A stretch of 64,000 bases of DNA from Gammaproteobacteria bacterium (lineage in GTDB: Bacteria; Pseudomonadota; Gammaproteobacteria; Eutrophobiales; Eutrophobiaceae): positions 288,001 to 352,000 of the forward strand of contig CAXMWX010000001.1 of the NCBI GenBank assembly GCA_963422205.2, in the 5' to 3' direction. The first letter of the stretch is position 1, and every line of letters starts with the position of its first letter. Shown here in pieces: positions 11,927 through 39,009 of the stretch. The notes under the pieces are model-generated. The model was not told the DNA's origin and did not search any database. It worked only from the letters and a program-made list of their open reading frames with translations. Made by a program: the position numbers and the translations under genes.

Positions 11927-12021
11927 TCATAAACAATCATGTCTGCCCGTATCATGATATTGCTGGAGAATCGTTTTAAGGCAAAGCACGCCATAAGCCG
12001 GTACGGCTGCACTGAACGAAG

Positions 12022-12771: not shown

Positions 12772-12847
12772 CAGGCAATAGAGCGAGTCCGGCGGCGGAT
12801 AGCACAGGCGCAACGGCAATGCCACATCCAGGTGCTAGTGGCCGGTG

Positions 12848-13387: not shown

Positions 13388-13516
13388 GTCGTATGGTTGG
13401 GTTAAGCGTTGTTGTGTTAGGACTGCCGAGCTGCTGAATTGTTGCATGCGGGCGCTGAAATGTAAACATGGTGTATAAGTCCACCACTATATTGCACTTT
13501 TTGTTGTGCTGGATAG

Positions 13517-13537
13517 GGTTCGACAAGCTCACCAACC
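13517..13537 (+). repeat. Palindromic micro-element type A (REP-like)
   Basis: GGTTCGACAAGCTCACCAACC inside the transposase 3' end. Confidence 0.8.
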
Positions 13538-13847
13538 AAATGTACTGCACGGGTGTTTGTCATCCCAGCCCCTTGTGTGGCCTTAGCCCGTTATATTTGA
13601 CCAGTCAATCGGCCAATGGTCGAAGCACTGGGACAGGGCAATCCCCTGGCCTGACACCAGGATCTGAGCAGTACCTGACACTGCTCTTTATCCAGATTGG
13701 GCAGGTCTTGGCGCCGTTGGCGTATCTGCTGGATAACCGCTTGTGGTCAGCGGCGAGTGCGCTTCGGTGCTTTGGGGGTCGGACACAAGCCAGACAGTCC
13801 CCACTCGCGGTAGGCTTTGCGCCAGGCATACAGGGTACGGCGGCTCT

Positions 13848-13868
13848 GGTGGGTGAGCTTGTCGAACC
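13848..13868 (-). repeat. Palindromic micro-element type A (REP-like)
   Basis: Reverse complement is GGTTCGACAAGCTCACCCACC. It interrupts the HTH motif G-x-SRRTLY. Confidence 0.8.
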
Positions 13869-13928
13869 ACTGCCACTGTGGTCAAGGGCGGGTCAGGCCA
13901 TGCTTGTCCCAGAATCTAAGCACACTGA

Positions 13929-13955
13929 CTTGCCTGCACGCAGCACGCAAGCAGG
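13929..13955. repeat. Palindromic micro-element type B (27 bp, degenerate)
   Basis: CTTGCCTGCACGCAGCACGCAAGCAGG. Removal restores QRLSVLRFWDKHGL. Confidence 0.75.
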
Positions 13956-14104
13956 GACGCTGTGCGGCGATTTGATTATTCATGTCCGCCCTTATTGCAT
14001 GGCTGCCCGTGCGATAAAAGCCTTTTATTCGATACCCTATATGCTGATAGTGCTCTCGTTCTCTCTCTTACGAATAGGGCAATAGGTTTCTGGACTTATA
14101 CACT

Positions 14105-14450
14105 GCCATTAACGCTGAAAACCGCCATACGGTAACGCCCCGGGGCTGGAGCCACGAGCAGGACAACACCAAAACGGTTCGCAATGACCGCAACACAGAT
14201 AAGATCATTGTGCGTGAGTTTGGTTTTAACGACTACCAGCGCATAGACAATTACGATTTTTCACCGGCCTATAATTACTGGGAAAAAACGTCCGGGTACT
14301 GGGGCAAGGTCAGGGAACTCTGGTCGCAGCGTATCGCTGAAACAGGATTGATTAATCTGAAAACTGAAGTCGATGGCATGCCCATTATCGAAGCCACGTT
14401 TAAACAGGCGGCAGCTATTGAAGAGGGCAGAGCCCGGCCAACTCAGAAAG
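14105..14450 (+). pseudogene. Fragment of a DUF6607-like gene, 5' part removed at the IS end
   Basis: Frame reads AINAENRHTVTPRGWSHEQDNTKTVR...REFGFNDYQRI..DFSPAYNYWEKT..YWGKVRELW. It begins abruptly at the IS terminus with no start codon. Confidence 0.6.
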
Positions 14451-14451
14451 A

Positions 14452-14485
14452 GGGGGTTGACGTATCTCTCGACAAATGCTGACAT
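14452..14485 (-). pseudogene. Stub of about 11 codons from a second Rpn-like gene
   Basis: MSAFVERYVNP versus MSEFVEKYVNP at 17620. About 34 bp direct repeat with 3 mismatches. Confidence 0.7.
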
Positions 14486-14531
14486 GAAGCGTGCTATGAT
14501 TGCATATTACAGCGTTAGGTACATATCTTTG

Positions 14532-16702
14532 CTATTTCAATTTTATCATCACTGAATCTGTTGGCATATTAAATTTCTCCATTATATTAGCCAGTCTCAA
14601 TATACAGGTTGGTGCAGGGATGTTAATGTGAATGAACAGCAAGTCATCATTCGGGTCTTTAACTTTATTCTTTGGTATTCCATCAAACGTTTTGTATTTA
14701 TTGTTGAAGTTCACATCTGTTCTTTCTCTTTCTTTCAGCACACTCCATTTTAAAATAGTTTCTTCCCTAATGAATAAATCACGTTGATTATCCATGATGA
14801 ATTCAAAATCAAAGTCCGGATTGTTTTTAATATACTTGAGAAATTGAATAAACACATCCTGCCACGATTTAACTTTAAATACTTGATCTTCTATTGTTAA
14901 TTCTCCAGGTTTATTTCCTTCAGCCATTTCACCAGCATCAGATTCTAATGGAGAAAAGGTAGATTTTTCGACAAGCCGGGTATTCCAATTTGACGCCTCC
15001 TTTAAATTTTCAGGTAACGGAAAGGCATTTAGCAACCAGTTAATCATATTGGATTGGTGTTCCAATATGCTCTGTTCGTTCCAATTTTCACGTTTAATTA
15101 TGTCCAATCTGTAATTAAGCGAAGAGGTTTCAATCTTTCTTTTCTTCTCCTCAAACGATTTATTTCCAATCTCGCTGTTAAATTCTGTAAGGATTAAATT
15201 ACCAATATTGTCTAAATAGGTTTTATGGATTTCTTCATGGTTTTCCCCTAATTCTGATTTCCATTTATCCTCAATCTTTTGAGGCATTATATGCTCAACG
15301 GTCACTTTTTTATTATTTTCTTCAATCTTGCCAAGAATCAATTTAGAGTACTTGCTAAGACCTTTGTAGAAATTCATTGTTTTTAAGTTGTTACTTAGCT
15401 CTGTATCGTTCGGAAGTCTGAGCCTGAAACTCATATTGGTTAACAACTCCAGCATTGATCGTTCACCACGAATGATTTTTGGTATTCTCTTACTTAACGT
15501 TACTATATAATTTTCCCCTTGCGTAAGTCCCAATATTCTTCTTCTGATAAGATAAGTTCTGATTGATTGTAATATGTCTATTAACGCGTCATCCCTCAGC
15601 ATAAGTTCATTCACCTCATACTGGTGATATTCTAATAATCCTAATACAAATGGTTTAAATGCTTCTGATTTAATATCGTGAAATATTATTCTAAGTAATT
15701 CCTTAATCTCCTTATCCTTGGTGTTGTCGGGAGATATAGTGTCAGATGAAACCTCTGTTATTATCGGCTTATAACATTTTACATATCTGATAATGTCATG
15801 TATAAAGTCATTATGCTTTCAAAACTTCCGTCTACAAAATCCTTAAATTGTTGATATAACTCCTTTGTGTTATTGTCGCTTACAACTTTTAATGGTGTTG
15901 CTTTCCTGTATTGAAGATAATCTCGAAAAAACTTTGATGTGTTTTCATTTAAAATTTCTTCAATTTTTGGATACCAGGTTTGTTCGTAAATATCAGATTG
16001 TTTTTCGCTTTCCATGTTAAGCAGTACAAAGTTTCTTACAAGGTCAGATAGTGTTAATGGTTTGCCAAGAGAATTGAGTGTTTCAAAAATGACTTGAGGG
16101 TCTTCACTTTTAAAAGGTCTTTCATCCAGAAATATAACCGCTACATTTATTCTTTGTATAGCAATAATATATTGGTCAAATTTGACTTCCAGATTATCTT
16201 TCTTCTTTTCACGGATGAGTTTTTTAAACAATTCATATGCTATTTTTATTGTGCCAGGGTCTGCTTTCGTACCATTTACCAATGATTTGTATGAATCCCA
16301 ATCTTTTGTAACTTGTTTGAGTTTTATTTTGTCTTGAAATGTTGACGAATTATTCGTTAGATAATTCTGATTGATAAAATCGCTCTTGTCTTGCTCTGTT
16401 TCTGCATCTCTTAAAGCAATTAGAAATATTAATGTGGTTGTTAGCCTTTGTTGACCATCCACAATCACAGATTTATTTGCGAACCCGGCCTTTTCATCTT
16501 TGATAACAAGTGTACCGAAAAAGTGTTCACGTTTGTCTTTTTGCTTTTTATTTAACTCTGAATCAATAATTCTTGCTACATCGCTAAAATATCTTTCAAT
16601 TTCAGGTTTACCCCAAGCGTAGGATCTTTGAAATGGAGGAATGAAGAATGAGGTTGCATTCTTAGCTAATACATCATTTATAGAGTGGCTTTCCGTCTTC
16701 AT
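14532..16702 (-). pseudogene. GmrSD-like type IV restriction protein (DUF262 + DUF1524), one frameshift near 15818
   Basis: Motifs IPPFQRSYAW, VDGQQRLTT, IFETLNSLG, VEHIMPQ and IGNLILT..NS. The two ORFs join with a single-base shift in a short A run, which may be a sequencing error. AT-rich. Confidence 0.85.
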
Positions 16703-16832
16703 TTATATTTTATTTTTTCGTTTTGGTTATGACTAATGTCCAGACAAACTCACTGAGCCTATCCCTTCAAATGTATTCTAAATGTTACTGCCTCGTAAAT
16801 AGATTCGGTGTGCTCATGGGGCTTATCATCTG

Positions 16833-17620
16833 TTACCCCTCGTTGATTTTTTGTTTGAGGGCGTGGAGTTGTTCCAGGGACAAGCCGGTCATTTCAATAA
16901 TGACTTCATCGCTTTTTCCCTGCTGAATCCCGTTTATTGCTACCTGCTCAATTCCTTGCTCAATTCCTTCTTCCCTCGCCGTATCCAGGGAATTCTTTAA
17001 ATCCCGATAGTATTTCAGACTGTCTTCATAGTTATTGAGCTGCTGGATATTGAACCTGGCAATCTCTGCCGTCTCAAACAGTTGGTCAAAGATCCGCTCC
17101 CGCAGCTTTTCAGGGATGCGATCCAGTTTGTTGAGGTTTCTCAGGATGTAAAGCCACTTGTCAAACCGGCTCACCAACTCATCAAGGGTTTTGCTGAACT
17201 TGGGCATTTCAAGGTAAATGAAGGTCAGCTTGTCGTAGAACACCCGGCATGTCTCCTCATCCATTAATTTAACGTCATACCGGTACTTGTGCGGCTCGTT
17301 TGGCCTGTTCGCGGATGGAAAAGGTGGCGTAGTAGACGGTGCGGTCTTTGAAGAAATTCTGCTTGGTTTTTTTGAAGTTCGACGATAAAGCGTTCGCCGC
17401 GCTCATTGGTGCAGTACAGGTCGAAAATGGCCCTGCGGTTCATATCTTGGTCAAGGTGTTCGTTTTTGAGGTAGGTCAACTCGGTGATGTGCCCCTGTTC
17501 TTCTCGGAGGAGTTCGTTGAGGAAGTCCAGCAGTAGGGCTTTGTTGGGTTCTTCTCCAAAGAGCTTTTTGAACCCAAAGTCGGTGAAGGGGTTGACGTAT
17601 TTTTCGACAAATTCTGACAT
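16833..17620 (-). pseudogene. Rpn-family PD-(D/E)XK nuclease-like gene, frameshifted and internally deleted
   Basis: Motifs NPFTDFGFKKLFG, AIFDLYC..GERFIVELQ, FIYLEMPKF and C-terminal EEGIEQGIEQ. Frameshift in an A run near 17370, and an apparent deletion joining EQAKRA directly to HKYRYDVKL. Confidence 0.85.
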
Positions 17621-17632
17621 GGCGTTTTACGG

Positions 17633-17640
17633 CAAAGGTA
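17633..17640 (-). promoter_or_regulatory. Bacteroidota-type -7 promoter element (TAnnTTTG)
   Basis: TACCTTTG lies 12 nt upstream of the Rpn ATG, with no Shine-Dalgarno sequence. Confidence 0.55.
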
Positions 17641-17685
17641 CGACATTCAAGATCAGATTTCAATCTCTGTAATTTGAAATCTTGG

Positions 17686-17814
17686 AAGTAACGGTCACGT
17701 GTATGAGTAATGTGGGAGATTATGAGATGAAAACTTATCCAGTTACACCAACTTCTGTACGAGCCACAAACGCTCGCAAACCACTGAAACCCGCATATAC
17801 TATACACATTAGCT
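17686..17814 (-). other. Degenerate attC-like imperfect inverted repeat
   Basis: Begins AGCTAAT shortly after a stop codon and ends GTTACTT. Arms GTGTATAGTATATGCGGG and CCCACATTACTCATACAC pair with single-base bulges. About 130 bp. Confidence 0.5.
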
Positions 17815-17827
17815 GTGCTTTTTTGTT

Positions 17828-18410
17828 TTATTCTCTATTTTCAATTTCTTCCTCTTCTTTCTCAATGTCTCTGGGGATTTCAAAATGTTTATTAATTCCC
17901 TATCTATCAATTATCCACGATACAAGTGTTTCTCGTCTTTGCTTACAACTCTCAGAAGTCCAATCTTCGAATTCGGCTATTTTACGTTCTTGTTTGATGT
18001 CAGAATTTGCGTAACAATGTCCTGTCCCAGAGTTTCCTTTTTTTCTATCAAAGTCAAAATTTAGATAGCCCAGCATTACTACGTTTCCCCGACCACAGGA
18101 AAACTCGGTAAGAAAACAACTCTAAGGCTTTTAGTAAATCAATATATTTCTCGAGGCTTATCTCACCTGCTACAACTCTTTTTCCGAACAGCAATCATTA
18201 ATGGTAAATAATTAGCGACATTACCCGTGTTTTTAATTTTAGTCAGCCATATAAATTCATTTTTTATTTCCGAATCTTCTAATGGCTTAATAATCGCAGA
18301 ATAATGCATAGAGATTTCTGCTAAACCAGAAGTGATGATTGAAATAAAATTCTGTGTATCCTCTTTGGTCTTTTGGGAGAAGTCTCTTAATGGAATAACA
18401 TCATTGGACT
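17828..18410 (-). pseudogene. Decayed AT-rich gene, probably a second DUF262/DUF1524-like protein
   Basis: Fragments YIDLLKALELFSYRVFLWSGKRSNAG and KK..YANSDIKQERKIAEFEDWTSESCKQRRETLVSWI, with stops and frameshifts. Confidence 0.45.
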
Positions 18411-18414
18411 TAAA

Positions 18415-18483
18415 ACCCTATATGCTGATATTGCGCTCGTTCTCTCCCTTAAGAATAGTGCAATATGTTTCTGAACTTATACA
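18415..18483 (-). mobile_element. Isolated terminal fragment of the same IS481-family element (copy 3)
   Basis: ACCCTATATGCTGAT...GAACTTATACA matches 14033-14102 and the right end of copy 2. It truncates the IS1595 transposase 3' end. Confidence 0.8.
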
Positions 18484-18529
18484 CCTCTCTCTACGAATGC
18501 CTTTGCTGGCACTAAGCCGCAGTTTGGCA

Positions 18530-18559
18530 CCTGTCTGCATGCGGACACGTACAGGCAGA
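18530..18559. repeat. Palindromic micro-element type B (30 bp)
   Basis: CCTGTCTGCATGCGGACACGTACAGGCAGA adds LPVRVRMQTG in frame between FWAY and AK. Confidence 0.85.
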
Positions 18560-18740
18560 TAAGCCCAGAAGGGCTCCATGCCATGGATGTGACTGGGCTG
18601 GTTGGCAAACGCATTGGCCCCGTGCACAACCCGAAAGTGCCTGGCGTAGCCCATATTGACTAGGCCATGATCGCCGCGCCAATCCTCCGAATGAAGGACG
18701 CTCTCGGGCGCGACTTTTCCCCGGATCACCGCTGGCAGTG

Positions 18741-18767
18741 CCTGCCTGTGCGATGCACGCAGACAGG
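18741..18767. repeat. Palindromic micro-element type B (27 bp)
   Basis: CCTGCCTGTGCGATGCACGCAGACAGG adds CLRASHRQA in frame between NAT and LPAVIRGKV. Confidence 0.88.
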
Positions 18768-19124
18768 TGGCGTTGCGGGCATCGGGCAGGATCTCCGTGA
18801 ACCGCTGCCCGTGGCGCTGGAGTAGACCAAAGACGAGGGTTTTCTGCTTGGCACCGCGACCGCGTTTGCCACGGATGCACTTCCGGCCAAAGCAGGATTC
18901 ATCGACTTCGACCGCGCCGACAAAGGGCGATTGTTGTTCGCAAAAATCCGCAATGCGCTGGCGCAGTTTGAGGGAAATCGGGTGTACCGAGCTCAGGCGG
19001 ATGCCGGTCAATCGGGCACTGTCGGAAACGGTCAACTCCAGGGCAAAACAGCGGATCAGTTGCCGAAATGTCCGCTCGGTGATTTAAGGAACGGATGGAA
19101 TGCCTGTTTTCCCTAGTCATTTCA

Positions 19125-19154
19125 CCTTCCTGTGCGTGTCAGCACGCAGACAGG
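19125..19154. repeat. Palindromic micro-element type B (30 bp)
   Basis: CCTTCCTGTGCGTGTCAGCACGCAGACAGG, 4 bp upstream of the transposase ATG at 19120. Confidence 0.85.
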
Positions 19155-19407
19155 GAAGCGTAGCACCCATCTGGTAGGGCTTAACTTCCTATGATCCAAA
19201 CAGGATAAAAATCCAGCCATGCCAGCGGCAGCGGGCTGTGCTGTAGCAAGGCCGGGCAGGACGGCAGAACCTCGCCGGCCTCTTCAGACATCCCCCCATC
19301 CGCCTGCTGGAACAACGCTACCGTGCTCATATCCTCTGTATCCCCTGACATCTGCCCCGTTATATTGCCTAAGACAGGCACAACACGCTGCAATATAATG
19401 GCGCACT

Positions 19408-20394
19408 ATGCGTATGCTGACCCAAGTCGGCCTGGTGGCCGGTCTGCTGTTGCTTATCGGCCTGCTGGCCTGGCAGGGTGTGCTGGATATTTTGGCGCTG
19501 CTGCTGGCCTCTGGCTGGTGGCTGCTGGCCCTGCCGTTTGTCTGGCTGCCCAGCCTGCTGGTCGCAACCCAGGGCTGGTTATGCGTGTTCCCCGAAGGTG
19601 CTGCCCCCCGTTATGTCCATGCACTGGTCGCTATGTGGGTAGGCCGGGCGGTCAACGATCTGCTGCCGGTTGCCACCATCGGCGGTGAGATCATCAAGGC
19701 ACGTATGTTGTTCATCAAGGGATATGCGGGGCTGGATGCAGCGGCCTCGGTGATGGTGGACAAGGCAGTACAGGCCCTGTCGGTGGCCTGCTGGGGCTGC
19801 ATCGGCGTGCTCGTATTGTTGATGATTTCACGCCACGCCGAACTGGCCGGTTATGCCGTTATCGGTTTTCTCATTTTGAGCATTTCGGCCATGATCTTCA
19901 TGCGTATGCAGCATCTGGGCATCTTGGGTGTGCTGGCAAAATCAGGCGGCCGGCTGATTAAAACCGATAGCTGGCGGGGATTGACCCTGAACGCACATCA
20001 GGTGGATGAGCGGATAAGGCAGCTCTATAGCCACCACCACCAGATCATCGGCTGCCTGCTGTTAAGAACCGCCTCGCTTGCACTGCAAACCCTGGAAGTC
20101 TGGCTGGCGTGCTATCTGTTAGGCCACCCCATCAGCCTGCCAGAAGCGGTCATGCTCAGGAGCCTGACCTCCACCTTGAGCGATATCGCCTTTATTATCC
20201 CCAATGCCTATGGCGTACAGGAAGGCGCTTTCATTATCATCGGCAGCATGATAGGGCTGAGTGCGGAGCTTGCTCTGGCGCTTTCCCTGTCGCTTCGAAT
20301 TCGTGATCTGTTGCTGGACCCGGCCGGGCTTATCTACCTGCAACACCTCGAAAGTCGGCGCTACCTTGCCCAAAAAAAACTGGCATCGGGCTGA
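19408..20394 (+). CDS. HpnL-like membrane protein (LPG-synthase TM / flippase-like family)
   Basis: Polytopic ORF with AVNDLLPVATIGGE and F.IPNAYGVQEG motifs. First gene of the hopanoid-associated cluster. Confidence 0.75.
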   Translation: MRMLTQVGLVAGLLLLIGLLAWQGVLDILALLLASGWWLLALPFVWLPSLLVATQGWLCVFPEGAAPRYVHALVAMWVGRAVNDLLPVATIGGEIIKARMLFIKGYAGLDAAASVMVDKAVQALSVACWGCIGVLVLLMISRHAELAGYAVIGFLILSISAMIFMRMQHLGILGVLAKSGGRLIKTDSWRGLTLNAHQVDERIRQLYSHHHQIIGCLLLRTASLALQTLEVWLACYLLGHPISLPEAVMLRSLTSTLSDIAFIIPNAYGVQEGAFIIIGSMIGLSAELALALSLSLRIRDLLLDPAGLIYLQHLESRRYLAQKKLASG

Positions 20395-20468
20395 ATTGGC
20401 CGGGCATGGTGGTGATTTTTTGCGTATCGTTCGCAGTTTGTCATGCTGCCGTAACATTATAAAATACC

Positions 20469-21554
20469 ATGATGGCTACAGAGAAGACCTCGCCAGCCAA
20501 TGACCTGACGCAGGCTGAAGACTACCAGAACAGAATTCTGCAGGGCGTATCACGTACCTTTGCGCTGACTATCCCGCAACTGCCGGGGCCGCTGGCTTCT
20601 GTGGTCGGTAATGCCTATCTGCTGTGCCGCATTGCAGATACGATCGAAGATGATAAAGACCTGGCCTTTGAACAAAAGCGAAAATATGCCGATCTGTTTA
20701 TCCGCATCGTTGAAGGCCATGCGGCGGCGGATGATTTTGCCTCGGAGCTATCGGCCGCCCTCTCGCCCGGCAACAATGCCGCCGAGTTGGATCTGATTCG
20801 GAACACAGCCACAATCATTCGCATGACGCATTCATTTAATCCGCACCAGCGCCATGCCATGCAACGGTGTATACGTATCATGGCCGATGGTATGGCGAAA
20901 TATCAGGAAAACAGGGTTCACAATGGATTACAAAACCAGGCGGATATGGACAGCTATTGTTATTATGTGGCCGGTGTGGTTGGCGAGATGCTGACTGAAT
21001 TGTTCTGCGACTATTCAGCGGAGATAAACAACAACCGCAAAGCACTGGCCCGCTTGTCCTTGTCCTTTGGGCAGGGGCTGCAAATGACAAACATTCTAAA
21101 AGACATCTGGGATGATCACCGCAGAGGCATGTGCTGGCTGCCCCGCTCGGTCTTTGAGCAACACGGCTCCGGCATTGATGCGCTGAGGAAGGGCAACAAG
21201 GATAAAAATTTTCAAGCGGCGCTGGGACATTTGATCGGCGTTGCACATACGCATTTGCAACAGGCCCTGGCCTATACGCTGCTGCTGCCAGGGCATGAAA
21301 CCGGTCTTCGAAAGTTCTGTCTTTATGCCCTGGGCATGGCCGTGCTGACCTTACGCAAGATAAACCAACATCGGGATTACAGCACGGGCGAGCAGGTGAA
21401 GATCTCCCGAAGCAGTGTCAAGGCAACGATGATCAGCATGAATGTACTGGTTAGACATGACTATCTCCTAAGACAACTTTTCCGTCTGGCTACCCGGTCG
21501 CTGCCTCGCACAGCCTTGGCCGGAGAGTATATGCCGGCTTTGCAACAAGAGTGA
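20469..21554 (+). CDS. Squalene synthase (farnesyl-diphosphate farnesyltransferase type)
   Basis: Motifs VSRTFALTI, YLLCRIADTIEDD, YCYYVAGVVGEML and GLQMTNILKD. Confidence 0.88.
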   Translation: MMATEKTSPANDLTQAEDYQNRILQGVSRTFALTIPQLPGPLASVVGNAYLLCRIADTIEDDKDLAFEQKRKYADLFIRIVEGHAAADDFASELSAALSPGNNAAELDLIRNTATIIRMTHSFNPHQRHAMQRCIRIMADGMAKYQENRVHNGLQNQADMDSYCYYVAGVVGEMLTELFCDYSAEINNNRKALARLSLSFGQGLQMTNILKDIWDDHRRGMCWLPRSVFEQHGSGIDALRKGNKDKNFQAALGHLIGVAHTHLQQALAYTLLLPGHETGLRKFCLYALGMAVLTLRKINQHRDYSTGEQVKISRSSVKATMISMNVLVRHDYLLRQLFRLATRSLPRTALAGEYMPALQQE

Positions 21555-21561
21555 ACACACG

Positions 21562-22269: not shown

Positions 22270-22313
22270 AGTCATCGTCACTCCACGGCAATTAGCACGA
22301 TGCTGATGCAAAC

Positions 22314-26547: not shown

Positions 26548-26561
26548 CACCCAGGCAACGT

Positions 26562-28690: not shown

Positions 28691-28859
28691 CGGCCACGGT
28701 GAAATCCCTCAAATCAACAGGGTGAAGGGACAGTATACCCCTTAAATAGCGGCCGTTATGAATAGGCACAAAACGGCCACGGCCTGCAACAAGATGCCGA
28801 CAATGGCGAGGCAGCCGCCCGCCGGATAACAGATTCCGGCGAGCAGATTCAACCAATCG

Positions 28860-29288: not shown

Positions 29289-29448
29289 GGTCAGTCTGCC
29301 GATAATGATTGTGCAGCGCACAATAATCTATTCGAAAGGGGCTGTCAAACCCGCTGGCAGGGTTTATGCGGGTTGGATGTGCCGGGATTTCATGCCGTGC
29401 TGTCTTCGGTATACTTGATTATCCGTTCAACCTCAACGCCCGTGGTGC

Positions 29449-31095: not shown

Positions 31096-31169
31096 AAACA
31101 CCTGCAATTTATCGAGATACCGGATATGACAGACTGGCATACGACCGATACATCCTGTGAAGCTAACGC

Positions 31170-31946
31170 ATGAGTCTGCTGGCGGGCAAACGCGCACTGA
31201 TCGTCGGTGTTGCAAGCAAGCGCTCGATCGCCTGGGGGATCGCCAGGGCCATGCACCGTGAGGGGGCGGAGTTGGCATTCACCTATCAAAACGACAAATT
31301 GCAAGGGCGGGTGGAGCAATTTGCCAGCGAGGTCAACTCGGCGATCACCCTGCCCTGTGATGTCGCTGATGACAGGCAGATAGCCGATGTATTTACGCAT
31401 CTAAAGCCCCACTGGGAGCATCTTGATATCATGATACACTCGGTCGCCCATGCGCCGAAGGAGTTGCTGGCCGATGATTATCTGGCAAGCCTCACCCGTG
31501 AGGGGTTTCTGATGGCACACGATATCAGTGCTTACAGTTTCTGCGCCCTGGGCGCCGCTGCCCGGCCGCTGATGGCCGGCCGGCAGGGTGCCATGCTGAC
31601 GCTAAGCTACATCGGCGCTGTGCGTGCCATGCCCAATTACAATGTCATGGGAGTTGCCAAGGCCAGCCTGGAGGCCAGCGTGCGCTACATGGCGGCTGGC
31701 TTGGGGCCAGAGGGGATCCGGGTGAATGCCATCTCTGCCGGCCCTATCCGTACCCTGGCCGCATCCGGCATCAAGGGCTTGAAAAGTTTCCTGGGCAAGG
31801 TCGAAAAAAACGCACCGCTGCGGCGTAATGTGACCATCGATGAGGTCGGCAATGTGGCGGCTTTTCTATGTTCTGATTATGCCTCGGCCATCACGGGCGA
31901 GATCACCTATGTGGACTGCGGCTACAACGCCGTGGGTCTCACCTGA
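31170..31946 (+). CDS. fabI: Enoyl-ACP reductase
   Basis: Motifs [20 protein letters not shown] and [14 protein letters not shown]. Confidence 0.96.
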
Positions 31947-31956
31947 GGCGGCGGGC

Positions 31957-33192
31957 ATGGAGAACAATCGTCTGCTGATTGCGATCTTCATTAGCGCCCT
32001 GGCGGGTATTTTCTGCGGCTGGTATTTTGGTGAGTCCATGCTGGCCGTTAAATGGCTGGGGGACAGTTTCCTCGATGCCTTGAAGATGCTGATCATCCCC
32101 TTGATCGTTGCCGCCGTGATCACCGGCGTTGCCTCCATCGGCGATATACGTCGCTTAACCCGGGTGGGCGGCTTCACCTTGCTGTATTATGCCTCAACCA
32201 CCGCCATCGCCGTATTCATCGGCCTGGTGGTGGTCAATATCATGCAGCCCGGTGCTGGCATCGATGCGCTCGCCCGAGAGGATGCCGCCGGGTTTGCCAG
32301 CCGAGAGCCGAAGACCCTGGTCGATATTATTCAATTCGCCATTCAGCCGAACCTCATCGCCGCCGCCGCCGATGCACAGATCCTGCCCATCATCGTGTTC
32401 TGTCTGGCATTCGCCACGGCGCTGACCATGGTCGGTCATCGTGGCGATACCGTGCTGGGTTTTTTTGATGGCCTGAACGAGGTGATGATGAAGCTGGTGC
32501 TGTGGCTGATGTATCTGGCGCCGGTGGGGATCTTCGCCCTGATCGCCGCCAAGCTGGGCAGCACGGGCGGCGGTGAAGCCTTCATGCAGCAAATCAGCGC
32601 TGTCGGTAAATACATTATCACCGTGCTGGTCGGCCTGGGGCTGCACTTTCTGGTACTGGTCGGAATCTTGTATCTGCTCACCGGGCGGGGAGTGGCGTAT
32701 CTGTTGACCCTGTCCAAGGCGCTGCTGACTGCTTTTGGCACCGCCAGCTCATCGGCCACACTGCCGCTGACGATTAAATCTGCCATTGAAGCGGGCGTTG
32801 ATGCGCGCTCGGCCAAATCCGTCCTGCCCCTGGGCGCCACGGTCAACATGGATGGCACCGCCCTGTATGAAGCGGTTGCCGTCATGTTCATCGCCCAGTC
32901 GCTCGGTATCGAGATGGGGATCACCGAGCAGATCATCATCTTCATCACCGCCACCCTGGCCGCTATTGGTGCTGCGGGTATCCCGCAAGCGGGCCTGGCA
33001 ACCATGGTGATCGTGCTAACAGCAGTCGACCTGCCGCAGGAGGGAATCGGCTTAATTCTCGCGGTGGACTGGTTTTTGGATCGTTTCAGGACAACGGTCA
33101 ATGTCTGGGGAGACAGCACGGGGGCCGCTGTGATCGAGAAGGTTTTGCCAGAAGAATCCGACACAGCCCAAAATGCCAGCCAGCCTGCGTGA
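31957..33192 (+). CDS. Dicarboxylate/amino acid:cation symporter (DAACS)
   Basis: Motifs TASSSATLP, PLGATVNMDGTALY and DWFLDRFRTTVNVWGD. Start set to ATG 31957. Confidence 0.92.
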   Translation: MENNRLLIAIFISALAGIFCGWYFGESMLAVKWLGDSFLDALKMLIIPLIVAAVITGVASIGDIRRLTRVGGFTLLYYASTTAIAVFIGLVVVNIMQPGAGIDALAREDAAGFASREPKTLVDIIQFAIQPNLIAAAADAQILPIIVFCLAFATALTMVGHRGDTVLGFFDGLNEVMMKLVLWLMYLAPVGIFALIAAKLGSTGGGEAFMQQISAVGKYIITVLVGLGLHFLVLVGILYLLTGRGVAYLLTLSKALLTAFGTASSSATLPLTIKSAIEAGVDARSAKSVLPLGATVNMDGTALYEAVAVMFIAQSLGIEMGITEQIIIFITATLAAIGAAGIPQAGLATMVIVLTAVDLPQEGIGLILAVDWFLDRFRTTVNVWGDSTGAAVIEKVLPEESDTAQNASQPA

Positions 33193-33349
33193 GTTCCCCG
33201 CATAGCGTACCCCATCCTGATGACGTTCCTGCTGCTTATATTCCTGGCATGGCGGGTTCACATGATCGGGGAATGCGGTATCGCACTTCTTTATTTTGCT
33301 GCTGGCGGGGAGATGCCAGCCAAGGTATTTAAGTAAAAGATAAAAAAAC

Positions 33350-33441
33350 TGGCGGAGAGAGAGGGATTCGAACCCTCGATACGGGATAAACCGTATACTC
33401 CCTTAGCAGGGGAGCGCCTTCAACCACTCGGCCACCTCTCC
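33350..33441 (-). tRNA. tRNA-Ser(GCT)
   Basis: GGAGAGGTGGCCGAGTGG...CCCTGCTAAGGG...GGTTCGAATCC...CTCCGCCA with long variable arm and encoded CCA, downstream of csrA. Confidence 0.97.
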
Positions 33442-33663
33442 GTTGCTCGAAAAACCCGTATCAGTCAGGCCGCCCAAACCCGCCTGCCAGAACGATCAAA
33501 GCACCGGGCATCGCCGGATAAAACTGATCCCATCCCGGCGGACGGCTGTGCCGTATGCACCACACACGACACACAGCGTGTTTATATGAATACTGCCACC
33601 ATCCCCCTCATCCCGGCCGATGGCTGCAAAAGCCTTGTTTGGATTTGGTTAAGGATGGCCTGA

Positions 33664-33906
33664 TCAGCTATTGCCAAGGTTATCATCATCATCTGCGTAC
33701 TCTCCATATTCCCTAGCCAGATCAGCCTTCGCCTGGCGAACTTTCTCTAACTGGATACGCTCATAAATCTCTTCACGATGCACCGCAATCTCCCTGGGCG
33801 CATTTACGCCGATTCTCACTTGATTGCCTCGAATCCCAAGCACGGTGACGTTGACATCATCGCCAATCATCAAAGACTCGCCAATCCTGCGTGTTAAAAT
33901 TAACAT
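33664..33906 (-). CDS. csrA: Carbon storage regulator
   Basis: [17 protein letters not shown]...[11 protein letters not shown]. Confidence 0.97.
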
Positions 33907-34025
33907 CGGTGTTTCTCCTGCTGTCCTTTCAACTGTAAGTGTAGTTGACTGACAGTATTTTTGTCATGATACTTACTGCACCGTTACAATTTTGCCCAAT
34001 AGCAAACCAGCACTATCAGGCTGCC

Positions 34026-35246
34026 TCAGGTGGGGATCTGAAGGCCAAATGCCGCATGCAGTGTTCTGACGCCCAACTCCAGATACTTCTCCGCAACGAC
34101 CACCGATATCTTGATCTCTGAGGTGGCGATCATTTGAATGTTAATGCCCTCATCCGCCAGCGCCTTGAACATGGTGCAGGCAATGCCGGCATGTGAACGC
34201 ATGCCCACACCGATGACCGATATCTTGACGATGGTATCATCCCCGGACACCTTGCGAGCATGCAACTGTTCAGCCGTTTTATGTAATATTTTTAACGCCT
34301 TGTCAAAGTCATTTCGATGCACGGTAAAGGTGAAATCCGCGGTATCATCAACGCCAACATTCTGGATGATCATATCCACATCAATATTGGCATCGGCTAC
34401 CGGGCCTAATATGGCACTGGCGATGCCCGGCGTATCAGGTACGCCCCGGATAGTCAGCTTGGCCTCATCACGATTATGGGCAATGCCGGCAATCTGCGCT
34501 GCTTCCATCGCCCGCTCCTCATCGGTAATCAAGGTGCCTTCCCCCTCTTCAAAAGAGGACAAGACACGCAAGGGAATATGATATTTACTAGCAAACTCCA
34601 CCGCCCTGATTTGCAAAACCTTGGCGCCCAAACTCGCCATCTCCAGCATCTCCTCGTAGGAAATGCGCTGCATCCGACGGGCGGCAGGCTCGATATGCGG
34701 GTCTGCCGTATACACCCCGTCAACATCAGTATAAATCTGACACTCACTGGCCTGCAAGGCGGCCGCCATCGCCACCGCCGTGGTATCTGAACCGCCCCGC
34801 CCCAGCGTGGTGATATTGCCTTGTGAATCCACGCCCTGAAAACCAGCAATCACTGCAATTTTATTATCATCCAAACACTGATGCACTCGATGTGCGTCAA
34901 TATCGACAATACGCGCCTTGTTATGCACCGCATCTGTTAAGATGCTGGCCTGCCCGCCAGTAAAAGACTGCGCGGTTTTGCCCAGCGCCGACAGGGCGAT
35001 ACCAAGCAGGGCGATGCTGACCTGCTCGCCGGTTGCCAGCAACACATCCAGCTCCCGCTCATGCGGCGCCGATGAGACCTCATGGGCCAGTCCTAACAGC
35101 CGGTCGGTCTCTCCACCCATGGCCGAGAGCACCACCACCACCTTGTGCCCCCGCTCGGCAGTGCGGCTCACCCGCCTGGCCACGGCCTGTATCCGACCGA
35201 CCGATCCAACCGAGGTGCCGCCATATTTTTGTACAATCAGTGCCAT
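34026..35246 (-). CDS. lysC: Aspartate kinase
   Basis: Motifs VQKYGGTSV, TTLGRGGSDTTA, TDVDGVY and two ACT domains. Confidence 0.97.
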   Translation of the reverse strand: MALIVQKYGGTSVGSVGRIQAVARRVSRTAERGHKVVVVLSAMGGETDRLLGLAHEVSSAPHERELDVLLATGEQVSIALLGIALSALGKTAQSFTGGQASILTDAVHNKARIVDIDAHRVHQCLDDNKIAVIAGFQGVDSQGNITTLGRGGSDTTAVAMAAALQASECQIYTDVDGVYTADPHIEPAARRMQRISYEEMLEMASLGAKVLQIRAVEFASKYHIPLRVLSSFEEGEGTLITDEERAMEAAQIAGIAHNRDEAKLTIRGVPDTPGIASAILGPVADANIDVDMIIQNVGVDDTADFTFTVHRNDFDKALKILHKTAEQLHARKVSGDDTIVKISVIGVGMRSHAGIACTMFKALADEGINIQMIATSEIKISVVVAEKYLELGVRTLHAAFGLQIPT

Positions 35247-35652
35247 TAATATCCGAGTTTTGCCGAAACGGTAAAGCCCCTAAATCCAGGGCGGAAAAAG
35301 ATAAGGCCGGGGAGTCTAACCGAATGACCGGCAACGGCAAACAGGATTCTCCAGCCAATGCCCCTTGGTCTTAATGACCGGCACCGACAACAAACCGACA
35401 TTGCCATCTCCCTTTGCCATAACATCGACAATAGCCACCACCCGCTTGCACGGCACGCCCTCCATACCCCCTGCCTGACATGGCAATAATAATTATGATC
35501 TGTACAAACACATGCCATTCAGGCGAATTGCAGTACACGTGTTGCCTGCACCTTTATGATGTACATGCAGGGGATCCCCCGGACCGTGAAGGGCAACCCA
35601 CACTATGCCATCGACCATGGCCTGCCATCACAACTGATGATACAATAACCCC

Positions 35653-35955
35653 ATGAGCCAAGTCGCCTTTGACACATTAGAAATTCACCGAAACCCTGAA
35701 GCAAGCCGGCATCTCTGACCAGCACGCCACAAGGCCGAAGCCATCGCCATTCAGGGCGCCCTTGGCGAAGCCCTGAATACCCAGGTGGCAACGAAAGAGG
35801 ATATCCATAAGTTAAGAACAGAGCTGAAAACCGACATTCACCGCCTTGAGCGGGGTCAGGGTGAATTACGGGCAGAGCAGCGTTTACTGAAATGGATGGT
35901 TGGCTTCAACCTGGCTTTTACTTTAGCCATGTTCTGGAAACTGTTCAGTCAATAA
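35653..35955 (+). pseudogene. DUF1640/CCDC90-like coiled-coil protein, frameshifted
   Basis: Pieces MSQVAFDTL, KFTETLKQAGISDQHA, VATKEDI and LLKWMVGFNLAF lie in different frames. Confidence 0.65.
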
Positions 35956-36158
35956 CTCAACTCCCACCAAACCGCAAGCGCTGGCAAGCAGTGCTTTCAA
36001 GGCAGACAAAACAGCCCACCTTATTGCCTTTATTCAGGCTTTGCCCTTACAATGAGCGCAAGAGAAAGCCCCAACCTCACCAATGATCAACAACATCAAT
36101 ACAAACAACACATTAGCCAGCATTGGCGATCAGGTTGAGTGATTAAGAGACTACAGAC

Positions 36159-36500
36159 ATGAACACAGCGACCCTGATGATAGCGACTATTGGCACAGGC
36201 ATTTCCTTGGCTGGTCTGATGATTGGCCTGGTGGCCTGGCTGCGAGCCGATACGCGCCGCATGGAAGATCGCTTGCGTGAAGATACGCGCCGCATGGAAG
36301 ATCGCCAGCGTGAAGATGCACGGCAAATGGAAGAGCGCTTGCAGGCAGAAATCGCGGCAGTCCGCAATGAAATCGCCGAAATCCACGAGGACATCAACGC
36401 CCACCGCAAGGAGACTGCCCAGTTGCGTGAGCGCATGGCGCACCTGGAAGGTCTGCTGGACGGGTTGCGCGAGGCTATTGTGGCAAGGGCGGTGGCCTGA
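36159..36500 (+). CDS. Small N-anchored coiled-coil protein
   Basis: Hydrophobic N-terminus, repeated DTRRMEDRxRE and C-terminal LRERMAHLEGLLDGLREAI. Confidence 0.7.
   Translation: MNTATLMIATIGTGISLAGLMIGLVAWLRADTRRMEDRLREDTRRMEDRQREDARQMEERLQAEIAAVRNEIAEIHEDINAHRKETAQLRERMAHLEGLLDGLREAIVARAVA
36249..36347 (+). repeat. Intragenic tandem repeat, 3 x 33 bp (11 aa)
   Basis: Two near-identical units of GATACGCGCCGCATGGAAGATCGC..GCGTGAA and one diverged unit. Confidence 0.88.
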
Positions 36501-36610
36501 TTGATATTATTCCGAGTTCGCCTAGACCCGCACTAGCCAACCCAACAAACCACAGCAAGACAACCGCAATCCAACACAACTAACTTGAATAAGCAGTATA
36601 GTCCCTCAAC

Positions 36611-37561
36611 CTAAGTAGCCAGCCAACCCGCCACGATTGCCGCGACATTGGGGTGAATTAAATAACCTGTACTGGAGTGTGGATTGGATTTGTCGCACCT
36701 GACAGCCAGATTGTAGATACGGATGTCAGTGATCGAATCCAGCATTCTGTTATCTTCCATATAGTCATAGTCATCATTGACGGACTCATCATGGGCGATG
36801 TAATCATCTTCCGCAGCGACATTGATCCAGCGTTTGATATTGACCGGATAACGTCTGTTGCCTTTCGCATTTGCGCCTTTTAATCTGTCCTTGACAGTCT
36901 CATTTCCCAGGGGGCTGCCCAAAGTTACCCATACAGATAATTTTTTATCTCTCACTTCCTGATGCTCGCCGTAATAAGAGAATTTCCAGAGCGTATCATA
37001 GGCGATCATGGTGCCCAGACTGTGCGATATCAATAAAACGTCATCACCGTTTAGCAGTGATTTTTTCAGAGGTTCGGTTAATCGCCACCTGACCTTGCTG
37101 CCGTAAGGACTGCTATCCTGCTTCCAGTATGCCTGCATGTCGGGGGCGCATTTTTTGATCAGGTTGTCGCTTAGGCTAAGCAGGTTCATCGGGCCAGCGA
37201 ATAGATCAGCGCCGATTTCTTTCAGGCTGGATTTCCCGGGCAGGTCTTCATAGTTGGCTCTGCCAGTCTTGCCCAGGAAGCCATCCCGGCTGTAACGTTT
37301 CAGCTCTTCCAGGCAACGGCGCCGGTTACTGATATCATCTTCCGCATCGTACTCTCTCCCCCTTTTTCTAAGAAAGGCGTTGGACACATCCCCAAAGTAG
37401 ACAAACTCTGCGGACTTGGCTACTGCATCATAGCTGCCAAGAATATCTGTGTCGTGATCGCGCTTGATGCCATGGCGCAAGGCACCTAGCCAGATTTCCT
37501 TGAGTGCCTCTTTTTCCGGTTTGAAATTGCGACCATGAATAAGAACGATCTTCTTTGCCAT
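36611..37561 (-). CDS. Uncharacterised alpha/beta-hydrolase-fold protein
   Basis: Motifs IVLIHG, SHSLG nucleophile elbow, TLGSPL, W.N..A.DD and NPH...GYL. Confidence 0.75.
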   Translation of the reverse strand: MAKKIVLIHGRNFKPEKEALKEIWLGALRHGIKRDHDTDILGSYDAVAKSAEFVYFGDVSNAFLRKRGREYDAEDDISNRRRCLEELKRYSRDGFLGKTGRANYEDLPGKSSLKEIGADLFAGPMNLLSLSDNLIKKCAPDMQAYWKQDSSPYGSKVRWRLTEPLKKSLLNGDDVLLISHSLGTMIAYDTLWKFSYYGEHQEVRDKKLSVWVTLGSPLGNETVKDRLKGANAKGNRRYPVNIKRWINVAAEDDYIAHDESVNDDYDYMEDNRMLDSITDIRIYNLAVRCDKSNPHSSTGYLIHPNVAAIVAGWLAT

Positions 37562-37704
37562 TGTGAGGTACCTCTCTGTCTTTATCTGCTATTCTTATCC
37601 AATTCTTTGCGGTTTTAATCATTCGAGTATAGCCAGAAATCAGAAATAAAAACAAGCTCCTGTATGGATCCACCCCCTATTGCCCTTTTTATTGTGCTGG
37701 ATAG

Positions 37705-37725
37705 GGTTCGGCAGGCTCACCAAGC
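37705..37725 (+). repeat. Palindromic micro-element type A
   Basis: GGTTCGGCAGGCTCACCAAGC, at the same position in the IS as 13517. Confidence 0.75.
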
Positions 37726-37796
37726 AAATGTACTGCACAGGGGTTTGTCATCCCAGTCCCTTGTGTGGTCTTAGTCCGTTATATTTGACCAGCCAG

Positions 37797-37826
37797 CCTG
37801 TCTGCGTGAAGGGACGCACAGGCAGG
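37797..37826. repeat. Palindromic micro-element type B (30 bp), absent from IS copy 1
   Basis: CCTGTCTGCGTGAAGGGACGCACAGGCAGG. Removal restores KLADWLVKYN. Confidence 0.9.
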
Positions 37827-37890
37827 TCGGCCAGTTTTTCGTTGAACAGGTTCAGGTCTTCAAACAGCAGCTGTTCATGGAAGTCCACGA

Positions 37891-37920
37891 CCTGTCTGCG
37901 TGCGGACACGCACAGGCAGG
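37891..37920. repeat. Palindromic micro-element type B (30 bp)
   Basis: CCTGTCTGCGTGCGGACACGCACAGGCAGG. Removal restores ERFNRTSQEQFVDF. Confidence 0.9.
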
Positions 37921-37956
37921 ACTGCTCTTGACTGGTGCGGTTAAAGCGCTCACAGA

Positions 37957-37979
37957 TGGTTCGGCAAGCTCACCAGCCA
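37957..37979 (+). repeat. Palindromic micro-element type A (23 bp, frameshifting)
   Basis: TGGTTCGGCAAGCTCACCAGCCA. Removal restores KMNAVCERFN. Confidence 0.85.
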
Positions 37980-38397
37980 CGGCATTCATTTTGGGGGTTT
38001 TGGGATAGGTGTATAGATGCAGGATCTGACTATCATTGAGCCGTTGGTCAAACGCGCCCTTGAACGTAACGCCACTGTCGGTAATCACCTGCTGGATGGG
38101 GAAGGGGGTCAAGCGGAAACACGTCTCAAAGAAGTCTCTGGCAGCTTGGCTGCTCCGTTTCGGCACCGCCAGGACTAAGGCATAGCCACTGGCTTCGTCA
38201 ATAGAGGTGAGGAGATACCCCCCGGCCACCTGCCTACGCCGCTCGATGGCGTCCAGTCCCACACACTCGCCAATCTGGCTGGGGCGATAGCCTTTAGGGC
38301 GGCGTGTGACGGGGGTTCTTCGATAGGCTTTGGCTTTCCCCTTCGGGCTCAAGGCCGGGGGTGAGATTCGCCTCTTGTCGGGGGTATCGGCAATCAG

Positions 38398-38423
38398 CCC
38401 GTCTGCGTACCCGCACAGACAGG
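38398..38423. repeat. Palindromic micro-element type B (26 bp, degenerate)
   Basis: CCCGTCTGCGTACCCGCACAGACAGG. Removal restores STIGRLIAD. Confidence 0.8.
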
Positions 38424-38662
38424 GCGGCCAATGGTCGAAGTACTGGGACAGGGCAATCCCCTGGCCTGACACCAGGATCTGAGCAGTACCTGACACTGCT
38501 CTTTATCCAGATTGGGCAGGTCTTGGCGCCGTTGGCGTATCTGCTGGATAACCGCTTGTGGTCAGCGGCGAGTGCGCTTCGGTGCTTTGGGGGTCGGACA
38601 CAAGCCAGACAGTCCCCACTCGCGGTAGGCTTTGCGCCAGGCATACAGGGTACGGCGGCTCT

Positions 38663-38683
38663 GGTGGGTGAGCTTGTCGAACC
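38663..38683 (-). repeat. Palindromic micro-element type A
   Basis: Identical to 13848-13868. Confidence 0.8.
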
Positions 38684-38743
38684 ACTGCCACTGTGGTCAA
38701 GGGCGGGTCAGGCCATGCTTGTCCCAGAATCTAAGCACACTGA

Positions 38744-38770
38744 CTTGCCTGCACGCAGCACGCAAGCAGG
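38744..38770. repeat. Palindromic micro-element type B (27 bp, degenerate)
   Basis: Identical to 13929-13955. Confidence 0.75.
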
Positions 38771-39009
38771 GACGCTGTGCGGCGATTTGATTATTCATGT
38801 CCGCCCTTATTGCATGGCTGCCCGTGCGATAAAAGCCTTTTATTCGATACCCTATATGCTGATAGTGCTCTCGTTCTCTCTCTTACGAATAGGGCAATAG
38901 GTTTTTGAACTTGTACATACGTCCTACCTGATTGCCCTCAGCTTCGTCTTGCTGGGGCAGTGACCACTTTGGCGACCGGCAGCGTATCCTCACTGTCTCA
39001 ATGGTTGCG

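Follow-up and report, generated by a model that had tools for sequence, protein, structure and literature searches.

Two types of very short DNA unit, here called A and B, interrupt the remains of two insertion sequences (ISs) in a 64,000-nt stretch of a gammaproteobacterial genome (hereafter the window; G000:C3:288001-352000, from a genome, G000, of 2.99 Mb in 14 contigs with ~54% G+C). Both types are seamless insertions, without target-site duplication, into ISs of two families. At this size the units cannot code for anything, and this, together with their precise insertion, means that something acting in trans must have put them in place. They behave like repetitive extragenic palindromes (REPs), RPEs and NTS/SRM repeats, yet in each family tested they lack the features that define it. 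On balance, we lean slightly towards the view that REP-like mini-palindromes, mobilised in trans, hit two IS lineages and were then amplified together with them, so that their IS-only pattern would be a historical by-product of hitch-hiking rather than the outcome of insertion aimed at ISs.

Seamless insertions in two transposase genes

Host IS DNA made up three stretches of the window (13472-14102, 18415-19189 and 37661-38917; Table 1). The element at 37661..38917, IS_A, carried on the minus strand a transposase gene broken by seven inserts and by frameshifts. Pieces of this gene matched rve, rve_3 and HTH_28 in a profile search, the rve and rve_3 matches (HTH_28 excepted) staying under the curated cut-off because the gene is broken. 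IS_A was 64-66% identical to the intact IS481 transposases P0003 and P0004 (347-348 aa) and 54-66% identical to IS481-type proteins, one of which is named 'IS481 family transposase' by NCBI; with an rve (DDE) core, an N-terminal helix-turn-helix (HTH) domain and this homology it belongs to the IS481 family. About 15 related copies or fragments were detected across the genome by blastn. The second host, IS_B, matched PF12762 (DDE_Tnp_IS1595) with 35.4 bits (cut-off 27), which places it in the IS1595 family, and it was 55-62% identical to five aligned intact IS1595 transposases of 225 aa. Paralogs of IS_B occurred on contigs C5 and C9, with four type B sites across these paralogs. The hosts thus belong to two IS families, as a preliminary description of this DNA had stated, one IS481-like (rve and HTH_28) and one with DDE_Tnp_IS1595.

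That description had reported 13 copies of two short hairpin families at 10 independent sites, and all of them were recovered. Five were type A: its core, GGTTCGRCAAGCTCACC, gave five window matches with at most two mismatches (0.02 expected from shuffles), all five in IS481-like DNA. The other eight were type B, with the arms CCTGTCTGCGTG-loop-CGCACAGGCAGG, or its variant B'. The 13 copies correspond to 10 independent sites because three sites recur in both IS481-like copies. Unit lengths were fixed, at 23-24 nt for type A and at 26, 27 or 30 nt for type B/B'. Outside IS DNA the window contained no further family member, as had been claimed; the other loose match, at 35541, had no family arms.

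Type B formed an imperfect hairpin whose arm asymmetry was constant. Folded as single-stranded DNA it reached -8.7 to -10.2 kcal/mol, with z between -2.3 and -2.9. When B' was included and both strands were folded, the range was -6.2 to -10.2 kcal/mol with the same z-scores, but z was -1.1 for the B' plus strand. Six folds of type A gave z-scores of -0.27 to +1.03, no better than shuffles, and type A is therefore not a hairpin; its terminal inverted repeat is merely 4-5 nt long (TGGTT...AACCA). The proposal of two hairpin families thus holds for type B and fails for type A. A search of window positions 37600-39000 against Rfam (E up to 1) returned no family.

Evidence for insertion came from relatives in which the sites are empty. 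In genome G036, of the same class, a related IS481-like element was matched 15 times, with identities of 63-86%, and G007 and G022 contained fragments. Alignment with these hairpin-free relatives left gaps of 27 (B'), 23 (site c), 26 (B3), 23 (site b), 30 (B2), 30 (B1) and 24 nt (site a). The B1 gap was exactly 30 nt in five relatives, with target duplication absent (fold of B1: -9.0 kcal/mol, z -2.7). For B2 the gap was exactly 30 nt against G007; the G036 rows had an 18-column gap because G036 has extra residues there. Empty and filled sites differed by the unit alone, with no flank duplicated and no target bases lost.

The proteins gave the same picture. Intact P0003 and P0004 lacked the insert peptides and were continuous across the IS_A sites, e.g. 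in PKMNAVCERFNRT, STIGRLIADAPDK and NERLADWLVKYN. Type A at site b interrupts a conserved transposase motif, PKMNA|(V/I)CERFNRT, and shifts the frame where P0003 and P0004 read PKMNAVCERFNRT; at B3, which showed a 26-nt gap in relatives, P0003 has STIGRLIADAPDK. In IS_B, all five intact 225-aa transposases showed a 9-residue gap at 18741-18767 and a 10-residue gap at 18530-18559. The unit at 19125-19154 is assigned as an insertion from family membership alone because there is no empty site to compare. Precise removal of the units therefore restores transposase motifs at the tested sites, as had been proposed. Units were inserted in either orientation, at eight sites in the IS481-like element and four in the IS1595 element, and their effect on the transposase genes is to disrupt or lengthen them; of the eight type B/B' sites of the window, five were 27 or 30 nt long and in frame.

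The units might instead be native to these ISs, as regulatory hairpins or transposase-binding sites, and their fixed positions in many IS copies would fit this. The idea is refuted with hardly any doubt left: neither related ISs nor the intact transposases of either family had the units, which were also polymorphic among paralogs and recurred in other phyla in settings of a different kind. Had intact relatives encoded the peptides natively, this would have spoken for it; we checked both families and found none, and the insertion claim therefore stands.

Table 1. IS-derived DNA and inserted units in the window
Feature	Position	Strand	Remarks
IS_A, IS481-like element, near full length	37661..38917	-	ends TGTA...TACA
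IS_A copy with internal deletion	13472..14102	-	retains sites A(a), A(c) and B'; blastn and alignment
IS481-like right-end fragment	18415..18483	-	88-90% identity to IS_A right ends; adjoins IS1595 remnant
IS_B, IS1595 (ISXO2-like) remnant	18484..19189	-	right end ...GGCTTAACTTCC; DDE_Tnp_IS1595, 1.3e-8
Type A, site a, 24 nt	37703..37726	+	near IS_A left end; 24-nt gap in hairpin-free relatives; empty in paralog C9_98
Type A, site a, deleted IS_A copy	13515..13538	+	core match and paralog alignment
Type A, site b, 23 nt	37957..37979	+	23-nt gap in relatives; empty in paralog C9_98
Type A, site c, 23 nt	38662..38684	-	HTH region; 23-nt gap; intact homologs have HSGKSRRTLYAWKK without insert
Type A, site c, deleted IS_A copy	13847..13869	-	core match and paralog alignment
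Type B hairpin B1, 30 nt	37797..37826	+	loop AAGGGA; between ...EKLAD and WLVKYNG...
Type B hairpin B2, 30 nt	37891..37920	+	loop CGGACA; fold -10.2 kcal/mol, z -2.8
Type B hairpin B3, 26 nt	38398..38423	+	variant CCCGTCTG...CAGACAGG; between ...STIGR and LIAD...; frameshift
B' hairpin, 27 nt	38744..38770	+	CTTGCCTGCACGCAGCACGCAAGCAGG; in frame after ...AAQR; 27-nt gap; empty in paralog C7_345
B' hairpin, deleted IS_A copy	13929..13955	+	loose type B search and paralog alignment
Type B in IS1595, 30 nt	18530..18559	+	in frame as LPVRVRMQTG; empty in C5 paralog
Type B in IS1595, 27 nt	18741..18767	-	in frame as CLRASHRQA; 9-residue gap in 5/5 intact transposases
Type B in IS1595, 30 nt	19125..19154	-	variant CCTTCCTG...; near IS1595 right end, upstream of remaining reading frame; common to C5 and C9 paralogs

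Distribution in the genome and across phyla

We scanned the whole genome for both types. With up to two mismatches, all 33 type A matches in G000 lay in IS_A copies, at four sites (a-d); allowing three mismatches added seven matches, in unrelated contexts. True members of type B/B' were picked by their arms among loose candidates (2-3 mismatches per arm allowed), which gave 25 type B and 12 B' copies. Thirty-five of these 37 were in DNA derived from IS_A or IS_B, a fraction of 12.7 kb or 0.43% of the genome, and enrichment in IS DNA is thus real. In terms of independent events, 12 sites fell within ~2.3 kb of IS consensus, compared with one or two elsewhere in G000. The claim that the units occur only inside ISs therefore holds for the whole window and, genome-wide, for type A; for B' it breaks down at genome scale, where two copies lay off ISs in inverted orientation (G000:C9:170532-170558 and C9:180123-180149; loci L186 and L187). 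This C9 pair sits in heptamer-rich intergenic repeats (GAGGACAGAC and similar) and flanks a 9.6-kb segment with a Phage_base_V (VgrG/baseplate-like) open reading frame (ORF). Other transposase genes of G000 were free of inserts, namely an intact-looking 305-aa IS1595 gene (C1), an IS1595 gene on C10 and two rve genes (C14).

Which sites are occupied varied among diverged IS copies. Among diverged IS_A paralogs, sites a and b were empty in C9_98, and site d was filled in C3_436 and C9_98 only; B' was empty in C7_345, and the 18530 site was empty in the IS_B copy of C5. IS_A lineages diverge by 8-13% and the inserts in them are still near-perfect. Conservation of inserts relative to their flanks showed a weak trend in diverged paralogs, with 103 of 107 insert positions identical in C3_436 as against roughly 91% outside, and we give it no weight. 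Where IS copies matched one another at 98% identity or more, they showed no insert polymorphism and had all inserts in common; there is therefore no sign of insertion since the last IS expansion. The inserts also served as endpoints of recombination (a/d deletion in four copies, B1/B2 hybrid in two, a/b deletion in two), and C3_59 was an IS_A/IS_B chimera with its junction at B2.

Variation and outside sources were sought in public data. Three public runs, from two samples of one study, were available as contigs; these contained no insert-free variant, although such contigs drop rare variants. They showed solely the paralog forms present in the assembly, and repeated the 632-nt skip and the filler TCAAT of the deleted IS_A copy at 13472..14102. 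A search of 241 million metagenome records with the exact 18-nt B2 junction revealed no IS_A and hence no outside reservoir of insert-bearing copies. Its 12 matches were all chance matches in unrelated coding DNA, one of which also had 32 nt in common with the hairpin. IS_A DNA had no match among plasmids.

Type B extends well beyond this genome. Its pattern was detected in four of 41 related genomes (15 sites in G000, three in G007, four in G019, three in G039; reversed-pattern controls, 0). The copies of G007, G019 and G039 were intergenic, near methyltransferase-HNH and toxin-antitoxin-like genes, and not in ISs, so the association with ISs was not repeated in related genomes. No type B was found in G001, of the same genus (a fragmented, 92%-complete assembly), or in 21 of the other 23 family relatives. 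In a collection with one genome per species, at least 113 stretches from dozens of phyla carried type B; by our own estimate, about four would be expected by chance in 596 Gb with equal base frequencies. Sources among the matches listed included Thermodesulfobacteriota, Zetaproteobacteria, Gallionellaceae, Brocadiaceae, Methylomirabilis, Latescibacterota, Verrucomicrobiota, metagenome-assembled genomes (MAGs) of Firmicutes, WOR-3, Bipolaricaulota and others. The identical B2 30-mer was present in MAGs of several phyla.

We examined 80 of these loci. All 82 copies in them had the arms CCTGTCTGCGTG...CGCACAGGCAGG with the same asymmetry, in unrelated flanks; 46 copies were 27 nt and 24 were 30 nt long. 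Five MAGs had 24-41 type B sites each (controls, 0), one of them, G045, being flagged as unpublished, with only its own count resting on it. Copies in these type-B-rich MAGs occurred roughly once per 60-150 kb. An ORF of at least 200 aa spanned 12 of 56 type B copies, compared with 821 of 1120 random positions. The 156 ORFs flanking type B were housekeeping genes (e.g. secretin, ALAD, MTHFR, GidA, acetate kinase and Lgt), and no neighbour family had more than two members among the 25 families shown per set. One transposase family was among them (Y2_Tnp with Zn_Tnp_IS91, one member). In four type-B-rich MAGs, one of 10 rve loci had a copy within ~0.5 kb.

Phages were hit as well: viral contigs contained 36 type B copies in 32 stretches, some contigs having 2-3 copies in 23-32 kb. 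In one such contig (L238), a 27-nt copy at 2943-2969 is read in frame in a capsid-region ORF just before the Phage_capsid_4 domain, and another at 7061-7087 is in frame in the ORF of the large terminase, where the GpA nuclease domain begins; a related viral contig (L252) repeats the arrangement and spacing of these copies.

Insertion points lay in hairpin loops more often than expected by chance. The loop of a flanking hairpin held the type B junction in 14 of 79 copies, compared with 208 of 2370 random positions (Fisher p 0.014). Type B was nested in type B copies of opposite orientation and in loops of NTS/SRM-like hairpins. The latter arrangement (..GTCATTCCGG^CGAAAGCCGGAATCC..) was seen at L040 (2009-2035 and 2245-2271), L059 (5122), L044 (3576), L062 (1570) and L116 (7761).

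Type A was less common. Its 22-nt pattern occurred in three of 400 other genomes of the phylum, all of one genus, as single intergenic copies and a 45-nt tandem array. This array (L158, G377:C119, 17-251) consists of five exact units and one degenerate unit containing the type A 22-mer, could be read as GFDKLTHQLSNQFDR repeats, and lies directly upstream of an ORF that, by our reading, resembles a type I restriction R subunit in its C-terminal part. G005 had a single type A match (L002, G005:C124, ~1490-1520) whose 17-nt core lies inside CCGTTCGTGGTGAGCCTGTCGAACCAC, presumably a longer, widespread proteobacterial repeat with the peptide PFVVSLSNH. Judged from this common 17-nt core, type A may be a shortened relative of the CCGTTCGTGGTGAGCCTGTCGAACCAC-type repeat.

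Origin of the IS inserts

The preliminary description had proposed a trans-acting enzyme encoded outside the window, and the window indeed held no mobiliser candidate. It had also advised a look at whether clusters of the motifs flank a mobiliser such as a RAYT/HUH TnpA, a GIY-YIG nuclease or a reverse transcriptase; for the first two, the searches gave no such link. Neither G000 nor G007 gave a match to Y1_Tnp (PF01797). The four type-B-rich MAGs that were searched all had Y1 genes, and at none of 10 Y1 loci fetched from them did type B lie within ~1.5 kb. No link to a Y1 transposase as mobiliser was thus found in these genomes and loci. Type B was likewise absent near the three GIY-YIG genes of G000. 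Of 21 PF01541 (GIY-YIG) loci in G000 and G041-G044, none had type B on both sides (the Pfam GIY-YIG model being broader than cd10448), and one type B copy lay ~1.1 kb from a 633-aa ORF. GIY-YIG/Ssn as mobiliser likewise showed no link in these 21 loci of five genomes. Genes enclosed by pairs of type B copies on two viral contigs were also discarded as candidates: they encoded phage capsid, portal and terminase proteins or proteins of no family, with no nuclease or transposase cassette.

At one locus (L220, G041:C156) two type B copies, at 1537-1561 and 2117-2160, enclose a truncated fragment of an IS200-like tnpA. This fragment has its own end hairpins, unrelated to type B. The right-hand type B is a nested pair, an SRM-like hairpin stands beside the left copy, and the region is rich in repeats.

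If our preferred reading is correct, types A and B would be very small non-coding units mobilised in trans, of the same broad kind as REPs, RPEs and NTS/SRM hairpins. Their mobiliser would be an HUH-Y1-type or GIY-YIG-type enzyme, either a nuclease or a transposase, with specificity for hairpins or single strands. Fixed length, insertion in both orientations, absence of duplication, nesting and the excess at hairpin apices fit such a hairpin or single-strand enzyme (HUH-Y1-like) and not a DDE transposase. The enzyme would be absent from, or no longer active in, G000. The two IS lineages may have gained their inserts earlier, in an ancestor or in another replicon with active units, and the inserts would later have multiplied with IS amplification as non-autonomous copies. 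Earlier acquisition followed by IS amplification would then leave the IS-only pattern seen today.

Several points weigh against this explanation. The 12 sites in ~2.3 kb are one to two orders of magnitude denser than in type-B-rich genomes, passive hitch-hiking alone does not account for this, and the density of inserts in the ISs is an unexplained residue. No insert-bearing IS_A was found outside G000, in the metagenome records or in the plasmid search. G000 contains several diverged lineages of IS_A that differ in their sets of inserts, which fits local accumulation equally with import. Finally, no mobiliser was found anywhere searched, and the trans-acting enzyme is one that we infer.

An alternative is a mechanistic bias towards mobile DNA. 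If insertion takes place in DNA that is single-stranded or structured, as in intermediates of replication, transfer or transposition, then ISs, phages and incoming DNA would be hit more than the resident chromosome, with no defensive purpose. The very high insert density in both ISs would follow, and the roughly twofold excess of type B over chance in hairpin loops, its nesting in itself and in NTS/SRM-like hairpins, and its in-frame copies in phage capsid-region and terminase ORFs, with 2-3 copies on some viral contigs, are all consistent with such a bias. Single-strand-acting HUH enzymes (IS200/IS605) produce seamless insertions without duplication, and by analogy the seamless insertions seen here could be their work. 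Moreover, the Ssn nucleases tied to comparable hairpins act on single-stranded DNA only (PMC11893778). However, only one of 10 rve loci in four type-B-rich MAGs had a nearby copy, a single transposase family with one member appeared among the families shown for the 156 flanking ORFs, other transposase genes of G000 had no inserts, and predicted structure at the IS target sites was weak and inconsistent. Because of the insert density, the failure to find the IS elsewhere and the coexistence of diverged lineages, this explanation nevertheless keeps a substantial minority share of our belief. We hold it somewhat less probable still that type B spreads across phyla by means of a hairpin or single-strand enzyme with a preference for moving DNA, the units, perhaps type A too, parasitising mobile elements and incidentally inactivating them.

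Random insertion in situ followed by differential survival appears unlikely. On this view the units had activity across the whole lineage at one time; intergenic copies would have been purged or have decayed, and copies in dead, multiplying ISs would have been kept and amplified. The two non-IS B' copies (C9:170532 and C9:180123) do prove that non-IS sites were hit in G000, and the genome is compact, its 150 kb of repeated DNA being mostly paralogous genes and not junk. However, inserts as old as the 8-13% divergence of IS_A are near-perfect, and equally old copies elsewhere should be detectable, yet the search at 2-3 mismatches per arm gave just two; type B was also missing from G001, with its fragmented, 92%-complete assembly, and from 21 of 23 other family relatives. 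The interpretation put forward in the preliminary description, an IS-directed system, whether anti-transposon or IS-parasitising, fared worse. We regard a dedicated host system that writes hairpins into transposase genes to disable ISs as very improbable, even though IS DNA holds 12 of 13-14 independent sites in G000 and the reading frame is destroyed by most inserts. Of the window's eight type B/B' sites, five leave the frame intact, which makes for poor gene killing, and the family has no IS association elsewhere; these two facts make a dedicated anti-IS function unlikely. Type B instead crosses phyla, mostly between housekeeping genes and also in phage genes, and the low yield at rve loci applies here too. 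The intact-looking 305-aa IS1595 gene and the two rve genes of G000 are without inserts, there is no candidate enzyme, and the lack of polymorphism among IS copies at least 98% identical leaves no trace of recent activity.

Comparison with known small repeats

Like the members of REP/REPIN-RAYT systems, our units are short, dispersed, non-coding and presumed to be mobilised in trans; REPs are GC-rich imperfect palindromes, as type B but not type A is, and mostly extragenic (PMC3116915, PMC3733652, PMC8266576), and some of them, like some type B copies, lie within ORFs or within further small palindromes (PMC3733652). In contrast to REPs, none of the 82 type B copies had a GTAG/CGTC end tag, nor, by inspection, did the window copies; type B ends in CCTG.../...CAGG, with G and C as common flanks. 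Its copies, moreover, number tens and not hundreds, and its arms hardly differ from phylum to phylum, whereas a REP is usually specific to one species. Copy number and location divide the genomes, with 37 copies in G000 (35 in ISs) and 24-41, mostly extragenic, in the others. The REP/RAYT arrangement is missing too, given that G000 lacks a Y1 gene and that type B stayed away from all 10 Y1 loci fetched from type-B-rich MAGs.

NTS/SRM repeats resemble type B in being hairpins of roughly 30 nt with oriented, non-palindromic features that occur in distant phyla (Chenal et al. 2025, PMC11893778). This cross-phylum hairpin is tied to the small GIY-YIG single-strand nucleases Ssn, a precedent for a dedicated nuclease partner of such repeats, but Ssn is presented as a transformation-modulating nuclease and not as an enzyme that inserts DNA (PMC11893778). 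The sequences differ, NTS being CGTCATTCCCGCG..GCGGGAATC, and type B was itself inserted in NTS/SRM-like loops. In G042, a MAG with such nested copies, three small GIY-YIG genes (L210, L212 and L214) were flanked by SRM-like hairpins, those of L212 and L214 as Chenal et al. describe (PMC11893778), whereas type B flanked none of them.

Type B shares with RPEs its presence as a palindrome in coding genes read in frame (PMC3733652): units of 27 or 30 nt add 9-10 residues to IS1595 and phage ORFs. RPE-1 is described as a 'longer' palindromic insertion (PMC3733652). Type B differs in its length of 26-33 nt and in crossing phyla, RPEs being confined to one genus. [quoted passage not shown] RPE-1 is about 100-150 nt long. 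The cyanobacterial small dispersed repeats (SDRs) are very small (about 20 nt) and thought to be mobile (cited in PMC3116915, PMC2884548), and may be the nearest analogue. A published account of the type B family was not found through sequence strings (primer coincidences only, among the matches listed) or concept searches, which led to work on REPs, RAYTs and MITEs, and the supplements of PMC3733652 and PMC11893778 might list it. The SDRs of Elhai et al. (2008, Genome Res 18:1484) are reportedly 21-27 nt long, lie inside other repeats and mobile elements, and belong to one phylum.

Two transposase genes that are unrelated, each with sites both filled and empty, provide unusually direct proof of seamless insertion of 23-30 nt, and units of this size stand at the lower size limit of mobile DNA. 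Since type B is nearly letter-identical across phyla and phages and has neither the RAYT nor the Ssn arrangement, an unrecognised insertion activity may be widespread. In practical terms, ORFs are broken or padded by such inserts, deletions and chimeras between repeats start from them, and gene prediction in MAGs can be led astray.

Two features of the host DNA deserve mention. The 150 kb of repeated DNA in G000 consists mostly of paralogous autotransporter, Uma2-family endonuclease and DUF5649 repeat genes and not of ISs (e.g. C3:1-4658, C9:39022-44412, C11:52326-56429 and C5:183456-184670); since it proved to be mostly autotransporter and Uma2 paralogs, this repeated DNA was rejected as a control set of ISs. 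Window positions 12001-20000, which carry the deleted IS_A copy and IS_B, are low in G+C (0.45-0.46, compared with 0.53-0.59 in the rest of the window), and this stretch looks like a horizontally acquired island.

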